A stretch of 64,000 nucleotides of DNA from an uncultured delta proteobacterium (GCA_963850125.1 CAWKKB010000013.1:112280-176279); one strand, 5' to 3'. Positions 6,986 through 41,627 are shown, counted from the stretch's first letter. Translations and numbers: made by a program. Notes: a model not told the origin generated them from the sequence alone.

Positions 6986-7990
6986 CTACGCGGCGCTCTT
7001 CGCCGTCCCTCTCGATCTGAAAAATTCTATCGCGGCAGCAATCGCGGCGTCGATCGGTCCCGGCGAATAGCCCAACTCGACACGTGCCTTTGACGAGTCA
7101 AAGAACATTCGCTTTCGCGCCATTCGGACCTCGGTCAGGCTGGCGCGCGGCGCACGGCGCGTGACTGTGCGCGCAAACGCTTCGGCGCCGAGTGCGTAAC
7201 CGAACGCAACCGCGTACGGAATTCTCATCTTCGGCGCCGGCATTCCGGAAATCGCCGCGAGCCGCCCGAGAAATTCCTTGAGCGTGAGATTTTCGCCGCC
7301 GAGAATATATTTCTCACCGATTCGGCCCCGCTCTGCCGCCAGCAGGTGACCTCGCGCAACATCTTCGACGTCGACGATATTGAGCCCGGTCTCCACGTAC
7401 GCAGGCATCCGCCGATTCAGAAAATCCACGATGATTCTGCCTGTCGGCGTCGGCTTGAAGTCGAGCGCGCCAACCGGCGTCGACGGGTTCACGATCACCA
7501 CCGGCGCGCCCGCGCGCGCGGCCTCGAGCGCCGCTTGCTCCGCCATGTACTTCGATCGCTTGTAATGACCGGGCATGGTGGCGAGCGACGACGGCGTGTC
7601 CTCGCGCCCCACACCGCCGTGCGGAATCCCGAGGGCGCCGACCGTACTTGTATAAACGATTCGCGAAACTCCCGCTCCGGTTGCGGCGCGAATAACGTGC
7701 TCGGTACCGTCGACGTTGGTCGCATACATCGGCGCTGGATCCGTCAGCCACAGCCGATAGTCCGCGGCGACGTGATAAACCTCGTTGCATCCGTTCACCG
7801 CGCCCTCGACCGAATCGAAGTACCGGAGATCGCCGCGCACAATCTCAACCGGTATGCCACCCAGCGCGCTCAAATCGGCATTCTCCCGTGCCAGCACCCG
7901 CACGCGATCCCCGCGGGCGATGAGGGCGCGCACGACGTGGCATCCCACGAATCCGTTGCCGCCGGTGACCAGTGCTAACTTGGTACTCAT
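6986..7990 (-). CDS. hpnA: NAD-dependent nucleoside-diphosphate-sugar epimerase/dehydratase, HpnA-like
   Basis: 334 aa. N-terminal LVTGGNGFVGCHVVRALIARG Rossmann motif and YxxxK (YKRSK). Conserved position next to hpnCDE. Confidence 0.75.
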   Translation of the reverse strand: MSTKLALVTGGNGFVGCHVVRALIARGDRVRVLARENADLSALGGIPVEIVRGDLRYFDSVEGAVNGCNEVYHVAADYRLWLTDPAPMYATNVDGTEHVIRAATGAGVSRIVYTSTVGALGIPHGGVGREDTPSSLATMPGHYKRSKYMAEQAALEAARAGAPVVIVNPSTPVGALDFKPTPTGRIIVDFLNRRMPAYVETGLNIVDVEDVARGHLLAAERGRIGEKYILGGENLTLKEFLGRLAAISGMPAPKMRIPYAVAFGYALGAEAFARTVTRRAPRASLTEVRMARKRMFFDSSKARVELGYSPGPIDAAIAAAIEFFRSRGTAKSAA

Positions 7991-9387: not shown

Positions 9388-10329
9388 CTATCCGCGCAGC
9401 GCGCTGAGGCGGCCCTCCGCCCACGCGCGGCCGACGAGGTAGAGCTTGTGCGGCGCGGACAGGCTGAAGCGGCGGTCGAGCACCCGGTAGTTGGACTTGA
9501 TGATGCGTTCGAGCAGCGCGGCGTAGATGAGCCTCATCGCCTCTGCCGTGAGCAGCGTCGCGCGATCCTCTGATGCGAGTTCGCTCTGTGCCAGCGCATA
9601 GAGTTCGCGCGCGCGTCTGGCTTCGAAGTCCATCAGGCGGACGAAGTTCGGCGAGTAAACACCGGCGAGAATTTCCTGCTCGCTCACCTTGAATCGCGCG
9701 AGGTCTTCCAATGGCAGATAAATTCGTCCGCGCTCGGCGTCCTCGCGCACATCGCGCAGAATGTTGGTCAGCTGAAGCGCCAGTCCGAGATTTTCCGCGT
9801 AGAGCTTCGCCGACGGATTTGAATAGCCGAATATTTCGATGCAAATCAGGCCGAGCGCCGATGCGACCCGATAGCAGTATGGCCGCAGCTCTTCCCAGCT
9901 CTGGTAGCGCTTGCGCGAGAGGTCCATCTCGACGCCGTTGATGATTTCTTCGAATAGTTCGCGTGGAATTTTAAATCGCCGCGCGCTGTCAGCGAGCGCA
10001 CGCGAGAGAGCGCGCGTCGGTGCGCCCGAATAGACGCGGTCAAGTTCCTCGCGCCATCGCGTGAGCAGCAGCGCCGGCTCGCGAATAGCTTCGTCGTCGG
10101 CGATGTCGTCGATGAAACGGCAGAACGCATAGACGGCGTGCAGTGCGCGCCGCCGATCGGGCGGGAGCAAAATGAACGCGTAGTAAAAGCTCGAGCGCGA
10201 ACGCCGCGTGATTTGCGCACATCGCTCGTAGTCGGCGTCGAGCGACGCGCCGTCGGCGCCGGCCGCTTCTGCGAGGCCTGAAGATCCGCCGTCAAACTTC
10301 GAGTCGTCCACGGATCGCGCTCCATCCAA
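9388..10329 (-). CDS. hpnD: Presqualene diphosphate synthase (HpnD, squalene/phytoene synthase family)
   Basis: 313 aa. Squalene/phytoene synthase fold with Asp-rich motifs (FCRFIDDIADD; NILRDVREDAERGRIYLP). The ORF-track start overlaps hpnC by 38 nt, so the true start may be a few codons downstream. Confidence 0.8.
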   Translation of the reverse strand: MDGARSVDDSKFDGGSSGLAEAAGADGASLDADYERCAQITRRSRSSFYYAFILLPPDRRRALHAVYAFCRFIDDIADDEAIREPALLLTRWREELDRVYSGAPTRALSRALADSARRFKIPRELFEEIINGVEMDLSRKRYQSWEELRPYCYRVASALGLICIEIFGYSNPSAKLYAENLGLALQLTNILRDVREDAERGRIYLPLEDLARFKVSEQEILAGVYSPNFVRLMDFEARRARELYALAQSELASEDRATLLTAEAMRLIYAALLERIIKSNYRVLDRRFSLSAPHKLYLVGRAWAEGRLSALRG

Positions 10330-19859: not shown

Positions 19860-19935
19860 CCTCTCCCTTCGGGAGAGGGCGCGCTCCCGCGCAGGTGAGG
19901 GCGCCAGCATTGTGCTCGATGCCAGCGCCCTCACC
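19860..19935. terminator. Cluster of GC-rich hairpins between convergent genes, likely a bidirectional terminator. The first hairpin is a member of the REP-like repeat family.
   Basis: CCTCTCCC-TTCG-GGGAGAGG (19860-19879), GCGCG-CTCC-CGCGC, then an 11-bp stem GGTGAGGGCGC...GCGCCCTCACC (19894-19935). Located between the yeaQ-like stop (19843) and the LLM stop (19988). Confidence 0.5.
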
Positions 19936-19987
19936 CGACGCTCGCGGACTCGCGTCGACCTCTCCCCGCGGGAAAGGATTGCCATCC

Positions 19988-27971: not shown

Positions 27972-29303
27972 ATGAACGGCAAGAAGCCACGAATTCTCCT
28001 GGTGCAACCCACGACCGTCCATCTGGACGGCACACCGCACAAAACGCGATGGCGGCTGATCATGGGCCTCATGATTCCGCTGATGGCCGGACTGACGCCC
28101 GACGACTACGACGTGACGCTGTGCGACGAACGCCTCGAGGACATCAACTTCGATGGCGGATGGGACCTGGTCGGCATGACGACAACGATCGGCGCGTCGC
28201 TGCGCGCGTACCAGCTCGGCGACGAGTTCCGCAAACGCGGAATCCCGGTGGTGTTCGGCGGCTTCCATGCAACCTTGCAGACCGAAGAAGCGCTCCATCA
28301 TTGCGACGCGGTCGTGAAGGGAGAGGCCGACCTGGTGTGGCCCGAGCTGCTGCAGGACTGGCGTGACGGCAAGCTCAAGACGATTTACAAAGCCGACAAA
28401 GTGCACGATCTGAAAAACCTGCCGCGACCGCGGCATGAACTGCTCAAGCTGAATCGCTACCTGTTCAAAGCGGTGCCCGTGCAGGCGAGCCGCGGATGCC
28501 CGTATCGATGTTCGTTCTGCGAGATTCCGGTGTTCTACGACGGCGCATATCGCACGCGGCCCATCGAGGACATCGTCGAAGAGATCAAGCAGGTCATGAA
28601 GGTGACCGGCTTCAGGCGCTTTCAGTTCATCGACGATCAGATTACCGGCAAGCACAAGTTCGCGCGCGAGCTGTTCAAGGCGCTCGAGCCGCTCAATATC
28701 CGTTTCTCCTGCCTGTGGACCATCAATTCGAATCACGACGACGAGTTGCTGGACCTCGCGGCGAAGGCGGGAATTTTCCACGTCAACATCGGGGTGGAAT
28801 CGATCAGCCAGGACAGCCTGCTGTCGATGAACAAGATTCAGAATCACGCCGGGCAGTACAAGAAGCTGCTCAAGAAGCTCGAAAAATACGGAATCTATTA
28901 TTCGCTCAACTTCCTGTTCGGGCTGGAAGAGGATCATCCGGGAATTTTCGACGACACGCTGAAGTTCCTGCACGAGGTCAAGGCGCCCGAGGCGTTCTTC
29001 AACACCGTTACGCCGCGCGTCGGCACTCCGATGCGCACGCAGCTCGAGAACGAAGGCCGCGTGATAATCCCCGACGCCGATTTGTACACCAACAACTTCC
29101 GCTGCATGTTCGTGCCGAAAAACATGTCGCCGCAGGAAGTCGAAGAAGGCGTGTGGCGATGCACCAAGGAGTTCTACTCGCTCAAGTCGATGTTCAAGCG
29201 TCTGCTGATGCCGCCGGGAAAGTTCACCTGGCAGGGCCTGACCGAGAACATGCTCTTCTACTGGGGCGCGAAGCGGCAGATCGATCCGGTTGATTATTAT
29301 TAG
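27972..29303 (+). CDS. B12-binding-domain radical SAM enzyme (class B rSAM; HpnJ/HpnP/HpnR-like or other)
   Basis: 443 aa. N-terminal cobalamin-binding Rossmann-like region (RILLVQP...VVFGGFHATL). CxxxCxxC cluster ASRGCPYRCSFCEI. C-terminal extension resembling the DUF4070-type tail of class B rSAMs. Confidence 0.8.
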   Translation: MNGKKPRILLVQPTTVHLDGTPHKTRWRLIMGLMIPLMAGLTPDDYDVTLCDERLEDINFDGGWDLVGMTTTIGASLRAYQLGDEFRKRGIPVVFGGFHATLQTEEALHHCDAVVKGEADLVWPELLQDWRDGKLKTIYKADKVHDLKNLPRPRHELLKLNRYLFKAVPVQASRGCPYRCSFCEIPVFYDGAYRTRPIEDIVEEIKQVMKVTGFRRFQFIDDQITGKHKFARELFKALEPLNIRFSCLWTINSNHDDELLDLAAKAGIFHVNIGVESISQDSLLSMNKIQNHAGQYKKLLKKLEKYGIYYSLNFLFGLEEDHPGIFDDTLKFLHEVKAPEAFFNTVTPRVGTPMRTQLENEGRVIIPDADLYTNNFRCMFVPKNMSPQEVEEGVWRCTKEFYSLKSMFKRLLMPPGKFTWQGLTENMLFYWGAKRQIDPVDYY

Positions 29304-29317
29304 GCCGCTATCTGTCT

Positions 29318-29355
29318 CCTCTCCCTGCGAGGGAGAGGATGAAGGTGAGGGTCCT
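29318..29355 (+). repeat. REP-like palindromic repeat, copy A (CCTCTCCC-TGCGA-GGGAGAGG-ATGAAGGTGAGGGTCCT)
   Basis: Read directly; lies 15 bp after the B12-rSAM stop. It seeds the spurious ORF 29339..29806 (MKVRVL...). Confidence 0.7.
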
Positions 29356-29432
29356 ATTACAGCGCCCTGCGCGATTCAGGATTCTGCGCGTTCGACGCCT
29401 ACGCAAAGTTCCTTTACCGGGGCATCCGGGCT

Positions 29433-29747
29433 TTGATCTTAAAGACGCTCGCGGTGCTAGTGCTCGCCGCGCTGCTCGAGGTCGGCGGCGATGCGCTCGT
29501 CCGGATAGGACTGCACACCTACGGCTACTCGCTGGCAGCCGGCGCATTTGCGCTGTTCGCGTACGGAATCCTGGTCAATCAAAGTGGCGTCGATTTCAAC
29601 CGCCTGATGGGAATCTACATCGCGATCTTCTTCGTGGTGTCGCAGGTGATCTCGTTTCTGTTCTTCAAGCAAATCCCGGACGACAGAATAATCTTCGGCG
29701 GCGGCTTCATCGTAGCCGGCGGTCTAGTGATTCTGCTGATGACGTGA
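29433..29747 (+). CDS. Small 4-TM membrane protein, YnfA/UPF0060-like (DMT-superfamily-like)
   Basis: 104 aa with four hydrophobic helices. Length and Gly-rich last helix (FGGGFIVAGGLVILL) resemble E. coli YnfA. Confidence 0.45.
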   Translation: MILKTLAVLVLAALLEVGGDALVRIGLHTYGYSLAAGAFALFAYGILVNQSGVDFNRLMGIYIAIFFVVSQVISFLFFKQIPDDRIIFGGGFIVAGGLVILLMT

Positions 29748-29750
29748 CAC

Positions 29751-29790
29751 TCGCCCGTTATCGGGAGAGGATTGGGCTGAGCGCGACTGT
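29751..29790 (+). repeat. Degenerate REP-like repeat, copy E (CTCGCCCG-TTAT-CGGGAGAG-GATTGGGCTGAGCGCGAC)
   Basis: Hairpin with one mismatch relative to the family stem, immediately after the ynfA-like stop. Tail GAT-GGGCTGAG is loosely similar to GATGAAGGTGAGGG. Confidence 0.4.
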
Positions 29791-29813
29791 GTTGCGGTCA
29801 ACCTAACCCCTAA

Positions 29814-29835
29814 CCCCTTCCCTCGAGGGAAGGGG
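29814..29835. terminator. Perfect 22-nt palindrome CCCCTTCCCTCGAGGGAAGGGG between convergent genes (bidirectional terminator candidate)
   Basis: Self-complementary over its whole length. Located between the ynfA-like stop (29747) and the panC stop (29859). Confidence 0.5.
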
Positions 29836-29858
29836 AACAATCGCAGGATAAGAGCGCG

Positions 29859-30704
29859 CTACGGATTGAGCACGACGTTGTCGATTAGGCGCGTCTTGCC
29901 GACGCGGGCGGCTATTGCGATCAGGATTGGGCGATCGAGCGACGGATGACGCGCTAGCGTCTCGGCGTCCACTGCTTCTACGTATTCGATCTCGACGCCT
30001 TTCATTCGTTTGAGCACGCGAGTCGCCGCGAACACTACTTCCTCGGCACAGCATGGGTGGGTGCGATGCTTCTCGCGGGCGGCCCGCAGGGCGAGGCTCA
30101 GCGCGAGGGCCTCTTCGCGCTCAGTCGGCGAGAGATAAGCGTTGCGCGAGCTCATCGCGAGGCCGTCTTTTTCGCGCACAATTGGCACCGGCAGAATCTC
30201 GACTTCGAAGTTCAGGTCGCGGACCATTTTCTGGATCGCGCGGAGCTGCTGGAAATCTTTCTCGCCGAAGACCGCAAGATGCGGTTTGACGATGTTGAAC
30301 AGTTTGGCGACCACCGTCGTTACGCCGCGGAAGTGCCCGGGGCGATGCGCGCCGCAGAGGCCCATGGTGATGTCGCCGGCGTCGACCCAGCTCTGCGCGT
30401 CGGGCGAGTACATCGCAGCGGGCTCGGGCGCGAAGACGACATCCACCGGTACCGTCTGGAGCATCGTGCAGTCGCGCTCGAAGTTGCGCGGGTAGCGCGC
30501 GAAGTCCTCGCCGGGACCGAACTGCGTCGGATTGACGAAGATCGACGCGACCAGAACCGACGACCGGCGGCGGCCCTCGCGCATCAGGGTGAGATGGCCG
30601 TCGTGCAGAAATCCCATCGTCGGCACGAGCCCGATTCGTTCACTACATTTGACCGCATCACGGGAGAAACGGGTCATCTCGTCGGGCGAGGTGATAGTGA
30701 TCAT
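29859..30704 (-). CDS. panC: Pantoate--beta-alanine ligase (pantothenate synthetase)
   Basis: 282 aa from MITITSPDEM. Motifs GLVPTMGFLHDGHLTLM (HIGH-like), FVNPTQFGPGEDF, AVFGEKDFQQL. The ORF-track version carries a spurious 113-aa Arg-rich N-extension. The real ATG overlaps the panB stop (ATGA). Confidence 0.9.
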   Translation of the reverse strand: MITITSPDEMTRFSRDAVKCSERIGLVPTMGFLHDGHLTLMREGRRRSSVLVASIFVNPTQFGPGEDFARYPRNFERDCTMLQTVPVDVVFAPEPAAMYSPDAQSWVDAGDITMGLCGAHRPGHFRGVTTVVAKLFNIVKPHLAVFGEKDFQQLRAIQKMVRDLNFEVEILPVPIVREKDGLAMSSRNAYLSPTEREEALALSLALRAAREKHRTHPCCAEEVVFAATRVLKRMKGVEIEYVEAVDAETLARHPSLDRPILIAIAARVGKTRLIDNVVLNP

Positions 30705-31549
30705 CGCGAGGCCCTCTTCGATTCGGCGTAGCAATGTTCCGCTGCCGGGAACGCGCGCTCCTTCACTTCGCGCACGTACGCGCTGGTTGCCGCCGACGCC
30801 TCGTTCCACAGATGCGCGAACGGCTTGGCGAAGCGCGGTGCGCACGATTCGAAAAGGCCGAGCATGTCGTGCATCACGAGCACCTGGCCATCGCAATCGG
30901 GACCGGCGCCGATGCCAATAGTCGGGATTGAGACGCTGGCAGTTATCTCGCGCGCCAGCGACGGCGGCACGCCCTCGACCACGATCGCGAATGCGCCCGC
31001 GGCCTCGAGTGCGGCGGCATCTTCGAGCAGGCGCTCGCGGCATCCGGCGGCGCGGCCGGATTTGCGGCCCTGCACCCGATGTCCGCCCATCCGATGTATC
31101 GACTGCGGCGTCAGCCCGACGTGGCCCATCACAGGAATATCGACGGCCGCAATCCTCGCGACCGCATCGGCAATCGCGAGGCCGCCTTCGAGCTTCACTG
31201 CCTCCGCGCCGCCTTCCTTGACCAGACGGCCGGCGTTGCGCAGCGCGTCTTCAGGGCTCACCTGATACGAGAGAAACGGCATGTCGGCGACGATCAGTGC
31301 GCGGCGCCGTGCGCGTGCGACCGCACGAGTGTGGTAGATGACCTCTTCGATGGTGACTGCCAGCGTCGTGTCCTCGCCGCGCACCGCCATTCCGAGGCTA
31401 TCGCCGATGAGGAGCACGTCGACACCGCAGTTGTCGAAAATTCTCGCGAATGGGAAATCGTACGCGGTGAGCATCGTGATCGGCTGGCGCGCAGCCTTCA
31501 TGCGCGCGAGATCGGGCACGCGAACTTTGTCTTGCGTCATATTCTTCAA
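30701..31549 (-). CDS. panB: 3-methyl-2-oxobutanoate hydroxymethyltransferase (ketopantoate hydroxymethyltransferase)
   Basis: 282 aa. ITMLTAYDFPFARIFDNCGVDVLLIGDSLGM signature. Confidence 0.9.
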   Translation of the reverse strand: MKNMTQDKVRVPDLARMKAARQPITMLTAYDFPFARIFDNCGVDVLLIGDSLGMAVRGEDTTLAVTIEEVIYHTRAVARARRRALIVADMPFLSYQVSPEDALRNAGRLVKEGGAEAVKLEGGLAIADAVARIAAVDIPVMGHVGLTPQSIHRMGGHRVQGRKSGRAAGCRERLLEDAAALEAAGAFAIVVEGVPPSLAREITASVSIPTIGIGAGPDCDGQVLVMHDMLGLFESCAPRFAKPFAHLWNEASAATSAYVREVKERAFPAAEHCYAESKRASR

Positions 31550-31830
31550 GCGCTCCTTGCTCCACTAAAAAAATCGGGGCTGCCGCGTACCGGCAACCCC
31601 GCATTAGAGCATCCTCGAATCAACGAGCGCTCGAATCACTCGGAGTCCCGGTCCTTATCGGATCCAGGCGCGAGCAGACAGCCGAAACCAAAATGTCCTA
31701 TCAACACCGTCTCGCCGGGAAAAATTCCTCGACGGACCAGTTCAATTATATAGAGAAAGCGGACGGGCGCGTAAAGAGAAATCGCTGGGGACAATTGTTC
31801 GTATCGTCCTGGGCGCAACGATCGTAATCC

Positions 31831-31868
31831 CCTCTCCCAGAATGGGAGAGGATGAAGGTGAGGGTCCT
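31831..31868 (+). repeat. REP-like palindromic repeat, copy B (CCTCTCCC-AGAAT-GGGAGAGG-ATGAAGGTGAGGGTCCT)
   Basis: Read directly; in the panB upstream intergenic region. Confidence 0.7.
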
Positions 31869-32030
31869 CATAAAGCGCGCATTTTAGCGCGCGATCTACG
31901 GTTCTGCCTCTTCTCCGAAACGCGCCGGGGCTATGCCAAGCTCTTCCGTCCGAAAAGAGATAAACACAGGCGGGAAGATTCAGGGCAAGGAACAGAATCT
32001 TGATTCGCGCGAAAGACGCGCGCTGAAAAA

Positions 32031-32069
32031 GGACCCTCACCTTCATCCTCTCCCTTTCAGGGCGAGGGG
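32031..32069 (-). repeat. REP-like palindromic repeat, copy C (reverse orientation; AGGACCCTCACCTTCATCCTCTCCC-TTTCA-GGGCGAGGGG)
   Basis: Reverse complement matches the family core GGGAGAGGATGAAGGTGAGGGTCCT. Inverted relative to copy B, with about 160 bp between them. Confidence 0.7.
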
Positions 32070-32144
32070 AAGAAGGACAAGGAGAGGTTATAGGATTTAG
32101 GACAGGCGCGCGGCGCTGTCGGACTACTAGCGAGTCCGGATTAA

Positions 32145-33074
32145 TCAGTTGGTGGCTTGCTGGATGTCGGAGGGGACCGGCATCGTCACCTGCAGGCGTT
32201 TGCCATCGCGCACGACGCTCAGGTATACGATTTCGCCGGGCTGAAGGTCACGCATGCGATCCTGGAAGTCGAGAAAATTGGTCACGCGCGAGCCGTCGAC
32301 GCCGATGATCAAGTCGTAGCTCTCGCCGACCTGCATGTAGTCCAGCGCCGGAATCACAATCACCGATAAACCGCCAGAGAAAACCGCCCCCACCATCGCG
32401 GCCGCGGCGAGCGCATCGTGGACGGTATGACTATATGGGCGCAGACCGACGGCTGCAGCGGGGCTGCCCTTCTCGACTTGCGTGATCAGCAAGCCGTCCG
32501 CCTCTTCGCCGGATTTGAGCGAACGTTTCGCCTCGCGCAATTGCATTCCGAAAGGAGTGGATAGCTCCCCCTCACTGTCGAACTCCTGCAAGGCCTTGAG
32601 CTGCTCAGGCGGCATCCCGCTCTGCTCCTCCTGGTAACGCGCGATCTCACCACCCTCGGCGGCGGGCTCCGAATCGGGCGAACTCCCGGCGGGCTGTTGC
32701 TGCGATGCGTCGGCGCTGGTGGGCGAAATCTCCGCGGTGCCAGGCTGCGTGGCGGCTATATCAGGCGGCGTCGGAACCAGATTCGATGGACTGGAAGCGG
32801 CCGCGGGAGAACCAGCTGCGGCTAGTGCCGTGCGCGGCGGTGAAGGCGAGACGGCTTCCACAATCGGAGCTCCAGCGCCGGATGCCGCGGTCGAGCTTCC
32901 AGACGCGGCAGAGGCGGCGGCCGATTTCCAGGTTTCAGAGGCGGTAGTATCGGCACTGGACTGTGCGGATGCGATCGCGCTGGCGAACAGAACCAGCAGC
33001 ATTGCGGCGAGCGATGCGCCGAAAGCGTGATGCTCGCACGCTTTGCTAGTTAGTAGCGCTCCAGCGTTTTTCAT
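32145..33074 (-). CDS. Secreted PDZ-domain protein with Ala/Ser/Pro-rich low-complexity linker
   Basis: 309 aa. N-terminal hydrophobic signal (MLLVLFASAIASAQ). Long low-complexity A/S/P region. C-terminal PDZ-like block (GLLITQVEKGSPAAAVGLRP...GEIVYLSVVRDGKRLQVTM). No protease domain is present. Confidence 0.5.
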   Translation of the reverse strand: MKNAGALLTSKACEHHAFGASLAAMLLVLFASAIASAQSSADTTASETWKSAAASAASGSSTAASGAGAPIVEAVSPSPPRTALAAAGSPAAASSPSNLVPTPPDIAATQPGTAEISPTSADASQQQPAGSSPDSEPAAEGGEIARYQEEQSGMPPEQLKALQEFDSEGELSTPFGMQLREAKRSLKSGEEADGLLITQVEKGSPAAAVGLRPYSHTVHDALAAAAMVGAVFSGGLSVIVIPALDYMQVGESYDLIIGVDGSRVTNFLDFQDRMRDLQPGEIVYLSVVRDGKRLQVTMPVPSDIQQATN

Positions 33075-40196: not shown

Positions 40197-41627
40197 CTAA
40201 TGTTGCGGCGTCCCGGTTGCGGACGGCGTCGCGCTAGCGCTGTGCGTCGGTGTGGGACTGATCGTTGGCGTCAGCGTTTCCGTTGGCGTCGGCGTTTCCG
40301 TTGGCGTCAGCGTTTCTGTTGGAGTCATCGATGGGGTCGGAGTCAAAGTGTCCGTCGCGGTGCTGGTCGGAGTGGGAGTTGGCGACGGAGTTGGCCGAAT
40401 CCAGGTGATAGGGTCGCGACCAAAGATGAGCGTCGCGCTGTGTCCTGAGCGTCCTTCGGTCATTTCTCCGGTGGTGACGAATCGGTCCGCGACCGGATCG
40501 AAAATCTCGGCGCTGGAAAGCGGCTTGTAGTCAGGATCCCATCCGCCCGCGATTAGCACGGTCCCGTCCGGCAAAAGCGTGGCCGAGTGTCCGGAACGGG
40601 CTTCGACCATCTCGGGTCCGTCGACGAACTGGTTCGTTTCCGGATCGTAAAACTCGGACGACTTGTCGCTGCGTCCGCCCGCGAGGAGCACGCGTCCGTC
40701 GGGCAGCAGCGTCGCGGTATGCCCGGCTCGACTCTGAATCATCTTCGGCCCCGCGCGAACCGTTCGATTCGACTCGTCGTAGATCTCGCTGGTATCGACC
40801 GCGCTGCTGCGCGCGAACGGGCAGCCGCCAGCAATCAGCACGAGGCCATCATCGAGCAGGGTCGCGGTGTGATACAGGCGATTGTCGTTGAGCTTGTCGG
40901 CCAGCTCAAACTTTCCACCAGCGGGATCGTAAGTCTCGAGTTTCTGGAATCCACCGCCCGCGATCAGCACCTTGCCGTCGCGCAGCAGCGTCGCGGTTTG
41001 GCCGTGGCGGCTCGAGGCCATCGCGCCGGTTTCGGCAAAGCTGTTCGTCGCAGGATCGTAAAGCTCGGCCGCCGGCGAGTCGCCGCCGACGATCAAAACT
41101 CTATTGTCTTGCAATGTCGTAGCAGTCGGATCGTCGCGAGAATCCTTCATGCTCGGCGCCGCGACGAATTTGCCGTCGCCCGAATTGAAAATTTCGGCGG
41201 AGCGCAAAATCCACGGCATCGCGGGGCCGGGAAACACGTTCAGCGGAACCAGCAGAGTGTTGATACCGCCGACGATCAAAACCTTGTCCATAGCGAACGC
41301 GGCCGCGGTGAATTGGTCGCGCCGCTCGTTCATCGGGGCAATCGGCAGAAAGCGGTGAAGCGCGGGATCGTAAATCTCGGCAGAACTTAGAACTCCCGGA
41401 CTTTCTCCAGTCGGGAGATCGACGTAACCGGTGCCACCCGCAATCAGGACGATCGGTTTCAAGGCTCCAACTGTAGTCGTCGGGGTCGGCGACGCTTCTT
41501 GCGTGCTTTTAGCTGGCTCGCGTTCATCGGCGAGGACGGTTGCGGAGATTACGCCGAGAGCGATCGCACACAAAAGGCACGCGCGAATACGCCAGCTGGC
41601 GAATAAAGCTTTGCGGCGTTCTCTCAT
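40197..41627 (-). CDS. Secreted Kelch-repeat beta-propeller protein with C-terminal Pro/Thr-rich repeat tail
   Basis: 476 aa. N-terminal signal/TM ([18 protein letters not shown]). About 6-7 Kelch-like blades (repeating GG..-hydrophobic-YD/FD patterns, e.g. VLIAGG...AELYDP). The C-terminal 70 aa are PTPTPT/TETLTP repeats. Confidence 0.65.
40263..40334. repeat. 18-bp in-frame tandem repeat (about 3.5 units; CGTTGGCGTCAGCGTTTC) encoding the [12 protein letters not shown] tail of the Kelch protein
   Basis: Units at 40263-40280, 40281-40298 and 40299-40316, with a degenerate unit to 40334. Read directly. Confidence 0.7.

Follow-up and report, generated by a model that had tools for sequence, protein, structure and literature searches.

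Introduction

Intergenic repeats of the BoxC/PIT kind, also called triplex motifs, have been known since the 1990s (Bachellier 1990s; Hoyne & Maher 2000), and to our knowledge neither their function nor the way in which they spread has been established. Some insertion sequences (IS) target repetitive extragenic palindromes (REPs), such as IS1397 and ISKpn1 in the bacterial interspersed mosaic elements (BIMEs) of enterobacteria, IS621 and ISPpu9/10. Here, we describe a family of three-arm repeats in a 64,000-nt stretch of DNA from an uncultured delta proteobacterium (GCA_963850125.1 CAWKKB010000013.1:112280-176279), which is called the window in the following.

The E. coli representatives of the class, G/C-rich "triplex motifs" that were formerly named BoxC and PIT elements, follow the TMECO pattern CCCTCNCCC-N3-6-GGGNGAGGG-N3-GGGNGAGGG, and their class II order is a pyrimidine (Y) arm, a purine (R) arm and a reverse-Hoogsteen arm (Holder et al. 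2015, PMC4666352). "Genomic instability" has been reported at the E. coli motif loci. A preliminary description of the window had listed its repeats as a REP-like palindromic family. With a probability of roughly 78%, we regard them as DNA-level intergenic repeats of the BoxC, PIT or triplex motif kind. They belong to a known but functionally unexplained repeat class, and the version found in the Binatia is elaborated into a composite element of about 95 nt. The repeats have a three-arm architecture that occurs in statistical excess, with covarying arms and variable loops; they are placed between genes independently of orientation, are gained and lost, and their loop 1 is used by an IS.

The repeats of the window have three arms

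The 25-mer GGGAGAGGATGAAGGTGAGGGTCCT was found at three exact sites of the window, 29331-29355(+), 31844-31868(+) and 32030-32054(-), with none expected, and three further variants were present. When up to 3 mismatches were allowed, no match was observed in 100 shuffles of the window. Repeat finding and an nhmmer profile showed that a full copy is about 80-85 nt long, compared with the 38 nt described before. Beyond the previously recognised tail follow a second GC hairpin (GCGCGC-loop-GCGCGC, or GCGC-CCT-GCGC in copy A) and a conserved tail GATTCAGGATTCTGC(C).

Copy A covers 29311-29388(+), a full element of about 80 nt in the nhmmer profile. Its Y arm TCCTCTCCCT (29317-29326) is followed by loop 1 (gcg, 29327-29329), the R arm AGGGAGAGGA (29330-29339), loop 2 (TGA, 29340-29342) and a third arm AGGTGAGGGT (29343-29352). 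When the third arm was placed antiparallel to the purine arm, 10 of 10 triads were G*G:C, A*A:T or T*A:T, and the third arm is mirror-symmetric to the purine arm. Spelled out, the motif is T-CCTCTCCC-T gcg A-GGGAGAGG-A tga A-GGTGAGGG-T. The short GC hairpin GCGC-CCT-GCGC (29362-29372) and the tail GATTCAGGATTCTGC (29373-29387) complete the copy. The 17-nt tail that had been noted behind the hairpin is indeed conserved; it is not an appendage of a REP hairpin but the third, reverse-Hoogsteen arm of a potential intrastrand triplex of the BoxC/PIT type.

Copy B (31827-31911, +) and copy C (31989-32072, -) are full elements that converge on each other. Copy B has its Y arm at 31831-31838, loop 1 at 31839-31843, the R arm at 31844-31851, loop 2 at 31852-31856 and the third arm at 31857-31864, followed by the GC hairpin (GCGCGC at 31875-31880 and 31887-31892) and a tail that extends to about 31910. 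In copy C, given in plus-strand coordinates, the Y arm CCTCGCCC lies at 32060-32067, loop 1 at 32055-32059, the R arm at 32047-32054, loop 2 at 32042-32046, the third arm at 32034-32041 and the GC hairpin at 32006-32023. Both have 8/8 triads, in copy C with one Watson-Crick mismatch.

A variant that had been noted at 19860-19906 was borne out. It reads CCTCTCCC-TTC-GGGAGAGG-loop 2-GGTGAGGG with a GC mini-hairpin of 15 nt as loop 2 (19860-19901, +), and it has an inverted partner that had been overlooked, CCTTTCCC-GCG-GGGAGAGG-loop 2-GGTGAGGG with a hairpin of 23 nt as loop 2 (19928-19977, -). Each has 8/8 triads. Their third arms face one another, as in the E. coli pairs, and the DNA fold of the pair has -44 kcal/mol (z -6.5). 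A motif of another family, CCCCTTCCC-TCGA-GGGAAGGGG-TTA-GGGGTTAGG (29802-29835, -), has 8/9 triads with one mismatch; the TT of its third arm matches the AA of the R arm, and its family occurs at least 11 times at other loci.

Copy E (29751-29790, +; CTCGCCCG-TTAT-CGGGAGAG-GAT...) was undetected by the triad scan. It retains only a mismatched hairpin and GGGAGAGGAT, and its third arm violates the triad rules. Its orthologue in a relative (L037) is better kept and has GGTGAGGGT. Judged by its sequence, copy E is a decayed copy.

In the triad-rule test, six motif instances of the window had the class II order of pyrimidine arm, purine arm and reverse-Hoogsteen arm on one strand. All of them had stems of 8 or more triads with no more than one mismatch (10/10 in A, 8/8 in B, C, 19860 and 19977, 8/9 in 29835). 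The loops of A-C are within the 1-6 nt of the ITxF criterion, with 3+3 nt in the 10-triad reading or 5+5 nt; those of the 19860 and 19977 variants are not, as their loop 2 is a mini-hairpin of 15-23 nt. Three convergent inverted pairs were found, namely B/C, 19860/19977 and E/29835.

The excess of third arms was determined in about 1 Mb of DNA, the window and 119 loci, which was searched for pyrimidine/purine hairpins. In 179 of 450 hairpin-strand instances, a third arm with a perfect 8/8 score followed the hairpin at a distance of up to 10 nt, compared to a mean of 2.8 (maximum 7) with shuffled flanks and to 33 with the wrong polarity. Outside the main family, 20 third arms were observed and 0.5 expected. 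Between families the purine and third arms covary, as in GGAAAGGG/GGGATAGG, GGGAGAAG/GATGAGGG, GGAGGAGG/GGTGGAGG, AGGGGAGG/GGTGGGGA and AAGGGGGA/AGGGGGTA. Opposite an A of the R arm, the third arm has T in 45, A in 60, C in 16 and G in 10 cases, with the register set on the G positions only. The frequency of T fits the purine motif, where T and A are both allowed, but is at odds with a pyrimidine-motif triplex on the opposite strand and with a simple mirror repeat of purines. Loop 2 is free to vary (TGA, TCGA, TTA, AG or mini-hairpins of 15-40 nt, for example at 19879-19893) while the third arm is retained. Watson-Crick folding of the DNA gave the 10-bp hairpin and left the third arm unpaired. 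Without a constraint that involves three strands, it is difficult to account for a third arm that covaries with the purine arm among families as well as between E. coli and Binatia.

Distribution of the element and its position relative to genes

The exact 21-mer GGAGAGGATGAAGGTGAGGGT occurs in at least 119 stretches of a set of species-representative genomes. The listed matches are mainly from metagenome-assembled genomes (MAGs) of many Binatia species; a genome has several such loci, and the element is in its full two-hairpin form. The motif is therefore not confined to the window. In the Binatia the element is about 95 nt long and consists of the triplex motif as a 37-nt module, the GC hairpin and the tail GATTCAGGATTCTGCC, with the consensus TTCTGTCT-CCTCTCCC-TGTAA-GGGAGAGG-ATGAA-GGTGAGGGTCC-ttata-CAGCGCGC-loop-GCGCGCG-ATTCAnGATTCTGCCTCTGC. 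A short form with the 40-nt core TTTCCTCTCCCTTGATGGGAGAGGATGAAGGTGAGGGTGA was identical, including the loops, in closed chromosomes of Nitrospirales, a Chloroflexota MAG and Binatia MAGs; in Dehalococcoidia it was found with up to 2 mismatches. The sharing of one core by Nitrospirota, Chloroflexota and Binatia contradicts the earlier supposition that the family is specific to one genome. The identical loops argue for a horizontal spread rather than convergence. A megablast search of plasmids with the 40-mer gave no match, and a scan of viral contigs gave only 5 matches, some with the full Binatia element, which were taken as host-derived or prophage DNA and not as a vector.

In one Nitrospirales MAG (L059, L068, L101, L103, L112), the short motif lies within a longer multi-hairpin repeat, …GGGGCGAGGGG-AGGCATGGAATGG-motif-GAGTAGGGGCAGGCCCCTGTGCCTGCCC…, of which 5 or more copies share a conserved stretch that exceeds 130 nt. 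In L049 3203-3323(-) and L120 ~9700-9790(-), which are from different sources, the same sequence of about 40 nt (ctgttttcc…ccgtgccaacgg) is located in the loop of the second GC hairpin.

The gene context was determined with a crude gene caller based on the G+C content of third codon positions (GC3). Of 86 full copies, 80 were intergenic and 6 were called inside genes, which are probably miscalls. The dispersed, intergenic and palindrome-containing character of the family is confirmed by this, and so is the bias to gene 3' ends, with many copies within 20 nt of a stop codon. The flanking genes were convergent for 21, tandem for 42 and divergent for 9 copies. A co-oriented stop codon was found within 15 nt before the start of 17 copies and a convergent stop codon within 20 nt of the end of 22 copies. 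Since stop codons are abutted in either orientation, the proximity to 3' ends is independent of orientation. All copies of the window are intergenic: copy A starts 8 nt past the stop of the open reading frame (ORF) 27972-29303, and the block of copies B and C directly adjoins the stop (32145-32147) of ORF 32145-33074(-).

Gain and loss between close relatives

Contigs that encode the identical neighbouring radical-SAM protein were used as close relatives; a look-up of the exact PanB protein gave no match, probably due to the choice of the start codon. The identity to the window was about 99% for L127 and L129, about 90-95% for L128 and about 82-94% for L037. Copy A is present in the window, L127, L129 and L037. 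In L128 a 20-nt spacer is found instead, and the missing block of about 110 nt comprises the element and CCTACGCAAAGTTCCTTTAC. When the three-way distances (5.2, 6.5 and 7.6%) were rooted at the midpoint, the result weakly suggested that copy A was lost in L128. The B+C block (31785-32144, 360 nt) is absent from L037 as well as L128 and is therefore a gain in the lineage of the window. At the E/29835 pair, L128 has unrelated repeats in its place. All three breaks of synteny between the window and L128 over 13 kb are located at motif sites, which echoes the instability reported for the E. coli motifs. Gain and loss of repeats of the BoxC/PIT type are documented here between near-identical strains. 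At species-level loci with empty sites (L046/L104, L002/L053, L098/L087), the junctions were too diverged to define the ends of the element.

At the E/29835 site, L128 7670-7760 contains two direct copies of a different short repeat, GCGAATGACGGAA-A-AATTCC-TCCT. L037 5900-6600 has an extra opposite-strand gene of about 700 nt between the small membrane-protein gene and panC, which is absent from the window and adjoins its own pair of triplex motifs.

An IS5-family element inserts into loop 1

In L127, loop 1 of copy C carries an insert of 545 nt (L127 10082-10626) between the positions corresponding to 32056 and 32057 (CCTCTCCCTT|…|TCAGGGCGAGG). The insert encodes the N-terminus of a DUF772 transposase, whose homologues are named IS5-family transposases; no further copies of this IS fragment were found in the collected loci. 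A full IS, which measures about 1.19 kb and has ORFs for DUF772 and DDE_Tnp_1 (129-1105 in L130) between the inverted repeats ACAGGAGAGCTTTGCATAAC / GTTACGCAAAGCTCTCCTGT, was found in L130-L133, where the pyrimidine arm lies to its left and TCA-GGG(A/C)GAGG to its right. In L132 the IS is followed by the loop-2 hairpin and GGTGAGGGT. An IS5-family element uses loop 1 as its insertion site, and so do its derivatives, which resemble miniature inverted-repeat transposable elements (MITEs). The link to a mobile element that had been suspected does exist; the partner is a DDE element of the IS5 family inserting in loop 1 and not a tyrosine transposase. No target-site duplication was found at the junction of L127 with the window or at the indel of copy A. 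TTCTG, present at both ends, was considered as a duplication and rejected, as the two ends do not covary within copies.

It is possible, but we consider it unlikely, that the unit of about 95 nt is itself a MITE of the IS5-family element and spreads mainly as cargo between the IS inverted repeats, with the DDE transposase acting in trans. There is an autonomous IS that has these inverted repeats, and 19 of 107 full elements adjoin an inverted-repeat motif of the IS, 5 on both sides and 14 on one side. The 5 are MITE-like units (left terminal inverted repeat, about 14 nt, complete element, about 20 nt, right terminal inverted repeat) that are nested in loop 1 of another element (L106 ~7060-7290; also L095, L015, L073, L052). 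The right edge of the copy A indel coincides with a degenerate right inverted repeat, CCTACGCAAAGTTCCTTTAC (cf. GTTACGCAAAGCTCTCCTGT; 29398-29417, +), 10 nt beyond the copy. Yet an inverted repeat could not be recognised at 88 of the 107 copies, copy A lacks the left one, target-site duplications were not found, and the IS itself contains no such element. In addition, the triplex module alone is found in phyla where this IS was not seen.

When the tips of the IS are abutted (CTCTCCTGT|ACAGGAGAG), they nearly equal the motif hairpin CTCTCCC-TGTAA-GGGAGAG. The motifs might then mimic or derive from an end-to-end junction of the IS and be recognised, copied or mobilised in trans by its DDE transposase. 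This is a doubtful idea. If true, it would be the first mechanism for the spread of BoxC/PIT-type repeats within genomes and between phyla. The IS5-family element, which targets loop 1 and has ends that resemble the motif, offers a concrete partner for tests.

Other features near the repeats

Upstream of panB (30701-31549, -) lies a strong terminator-like hairpin with a T run (31601-31575, -), just before the start of the gene, which is the only strong terminator call in the region. Rfam gave a match below threshold at 31645-31669(-), to the 'pan motif' RF01749, with 23.8 bits and a gathering score of 36.2. Together (31560-31680, -), they look like a pan-motif leader or attenuator of panB. At 40245-40316 an 18-nt tandem repeat CGTTGGCGTCAGCGTTTC is present in about 4 copies, followed by diverged repeats at 40479-41381 with a spacing of 130-150 nt; this is probably a gene for a repeat-domain protein.

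Discussion

We propose that the G-rich strand of each copy, with its pyrimidine arm, the Watson-Crick purine partner and the third arm of G, A and T, would fold back twice when it becomes single-stranded in replication, repair or transcription. The first fold is a hairpin; the second could potentially give a class II, purine-motif intrastrand triplex. In the Binatia, the 37-nt module with the GC hairpin and the conserved tail would make up a non-coding, non-autonomous element of about 95 nt that occupies neutral spots just past stop codons, often as convergent pairs. The folded structure may form transiently in vivo and be the thing that is recognised or selected. Stalling or slippage of the polymerase, or repair, would render the sites prone to indels, and the structure would also present a target for the IS. 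The element would then persist as a selfish or neutral repeat and not as a gene-regulatory RNA. The best-supported effects are the structural fragility of the sites, seen as indels, and their use for the landing of the IS.

Several points weigh against this interpretation. The related copies were collected with the exact 21-mer, so the invariance of the arms in the main family is given by construction, and the covariation rests on the other, smaller families. A protein site, or a two-tetrad G-quadruplex for which GG-N-GG-N-GG-N-GG is present, could underlie the mirror symmetry instead. Holder et al. saw no protection against dimethyl sulphate in vivo, and double-stranded TMECO was a duplex and not a triplex (PMC4666352). 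Because a stable triplex could not be detected in vivo there, any folding in the cell would have to be transient. In the earlier work, as far as it is cited in the same paper, PIT elements had no promoter, terminator or polymerase effect in vivo. Three further observations point to the RNA. The consensus fold of the plus strand (-46.9 kcal/mol, z -6.2) is stronger than that of the minus strand (-40.0 kcal/mol), two G.U pairs that join the third arm to the tail (columns 48-94 and 49-93) hardly vary, and the orientation relative to the upstream gene has a mild bias to co-orientation (48:28).

These last observations would be explained by an RNA-level element, a structure in the 3'-untranslated region that acts as a stabiliser of the mRNA, a terminator without U residues or a small RNA, with hairpin 1 and with a hairpin 2 that is extended by pairing of the third arm and the tail. 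With a structure imposed by hand, 90% of the cells were paired in the alignment of 86 copies, and the 17 copies that start within 15 nt of a co-oriented stop would be in place for such a role. RNAalifold on the same alignment had returned a meaningless structure of 10 pairs, which was set aside for the imposed one. However, 22 copies abut the stop of the convergent gene in opposite orientation, and this placement at stops in both orientations argues against a strand-specific RNA. The covariation score was 0.043 and did not differ from that of shuffles (0.043), and 44 of the 86 copies break the pair at columns 52-90. In the scan for terminators and promoters no element was called and no U tract was seen, and with this the proposed terminator role is not upheld. 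In Rfam the elements had no match at the gathering score, at which only a tRNA was found, or at E<=10. The inactivity of the E. coli PIT elements as terminators or promoters, in the work cited above, also speaks against an RNA role. Finally, the third arm would be left unexplained, as purine-motif triplexes do not form in RNA (PMC4666352). An RNA-level element is therefore improbable.

A REP system with paired REPs (REPINs), in which a REP-associated tyrosine transposase (RAYT) recognises and cleaves the hairpin and spreads inverted pairs, would account for the dispersed intergenic palindromes at gene 3' ends, for the three convergent inverted pairs of the window and for the presence/absence polymorphism among relatives. 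A phmmer search with the E. coli RayT gave 0 matches in 8494 ORF fragments from 987 kb (the window and 124 loci with about 150 copies, which are loci and not complete genomes). The conserved, covarying third arm beyond a free loop is left unexplained by a REP, and lineage-specific REPs are unlike a 40-mer that is identical in three phyla. A RAYT target is very improbable on these grounds. The label "REP-like" given to the repeats at first fits their behaviour in the genome, but not the three-arm anatomy, the breadth of distribution or the partner among the mobile elements.

That the element is a small protein gene opening with MKVRVL at GGGAGAGG-ATG can practically be dismissed, for although a sequence like Shine-Dalgarno (SD) precedes an ATG and ORFs 29339-29806 and 31842-32003 begin ATGAAGGTGAGGGTCCT within the element, the sequence past codon 6 differs among copies, the length differences of hairpin 2 are not multiples of 3, the GC3-supported gene 29433-29747 lies in another frame than ORF 29339, and relatives are without the B+C block. 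These are the false SD+ATG starts that had been pointed out before. In practice, the motif gives rise to such "MKVRVL…" starts and to synteny breaks, and annotators of Binatia and Nitrospirota MAGs should mask it.

As probable DNA-level repeats of the triplex motif kind, the elements can be compared with several known systems. With MITEs such as Correia, Nezha and RUP they share the small, non-coding, multi-copy type, a subset with inverted repeats of an autonomous IS on either side and the nested insertions; they differ in that most copies have no inverted repeats and no target-site duplication was seen. With REP/BIME sequences and with the REPINs and RAYTs of enterobacteria and Pseudomonas, they have in common short, GC-rich, dispersed intergenic palindromes at gene ends, inverted pairs, a mosaic association with other motifs and the targeting by specific IS elements. 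In contrast to these, no RAYT was near the copies examined, the motif has three arms and not two, and its core is common to several phyla. The conserved unit as a whole is no two-arm palindrome, since the third arm lies past a variable loop and is followed by the hairpin and the tail. The precise insertion into the loop of a repeated intergenic hairpin (L127 copy C; L130-L133) is shared with the IS elements that target REPs, but here the IS is of the IS5 family (DUF772 and DDE_Tnp_1), and the tips ACAGGAGAG / CTCTCCTGT of its inverted repeats resemble the arms of the target hairpin.

The closest likeness is with the E. coli BoxC/PIT/TMECO elements, for which the motif pair between hrpB and mrcB, unannotated in RefSeq NC_000913.3, was read directly. 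The class II order of Y arm, loop, R arm, loop and mirror G/T/A arm is the same, and 8/9 triads are the same as in CCCTCTCCC/GGGAGAGGG/GGGTGAGGG. The strict TMECO pattern is not matched, as TCCTCTCCC / GGGAGAGGA / AGGTGAGGG has one change per arm. The change is a coordinated one of the end triad on all three arms, from C.G*G to T.A*A, and a T.A*T triad is added. The T>G mismatch in the Y arm CCTCGCCC, found in copy C and in 8 of 86 Binatia copies, corresponds to the "mm" variant that dominates in E. coli. In both cases the loops are less conserved than the arms, the motifs are always intergenic and on both strands, convergent inverted pairs are frequent and the loci vary among relatives. In both E. 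coli (L125 575-592, hrpB-mrcB spacer) and Binatia (window 29353-29366), CAGCGCGC is found within a few bases of the third arm, which may be common ancestry of the BoxC flank or a coincidence. The differences are that the Binatia motif continues into a second GC hairpin and a conserved tail to give the element of about 95 nt, that it is biased to 3' ends, while for TMECO a location upstream of ORFs was reported to be more frequent, and that it is linked to an IS, with none found for TMECO. The hosts of TMECO are Proteobacteria, and those found here are Binatia, Nitrospirota and Chloroflexota, so that the family extends the repeats of the BoxC/PIT type to uncultured soil phyla.

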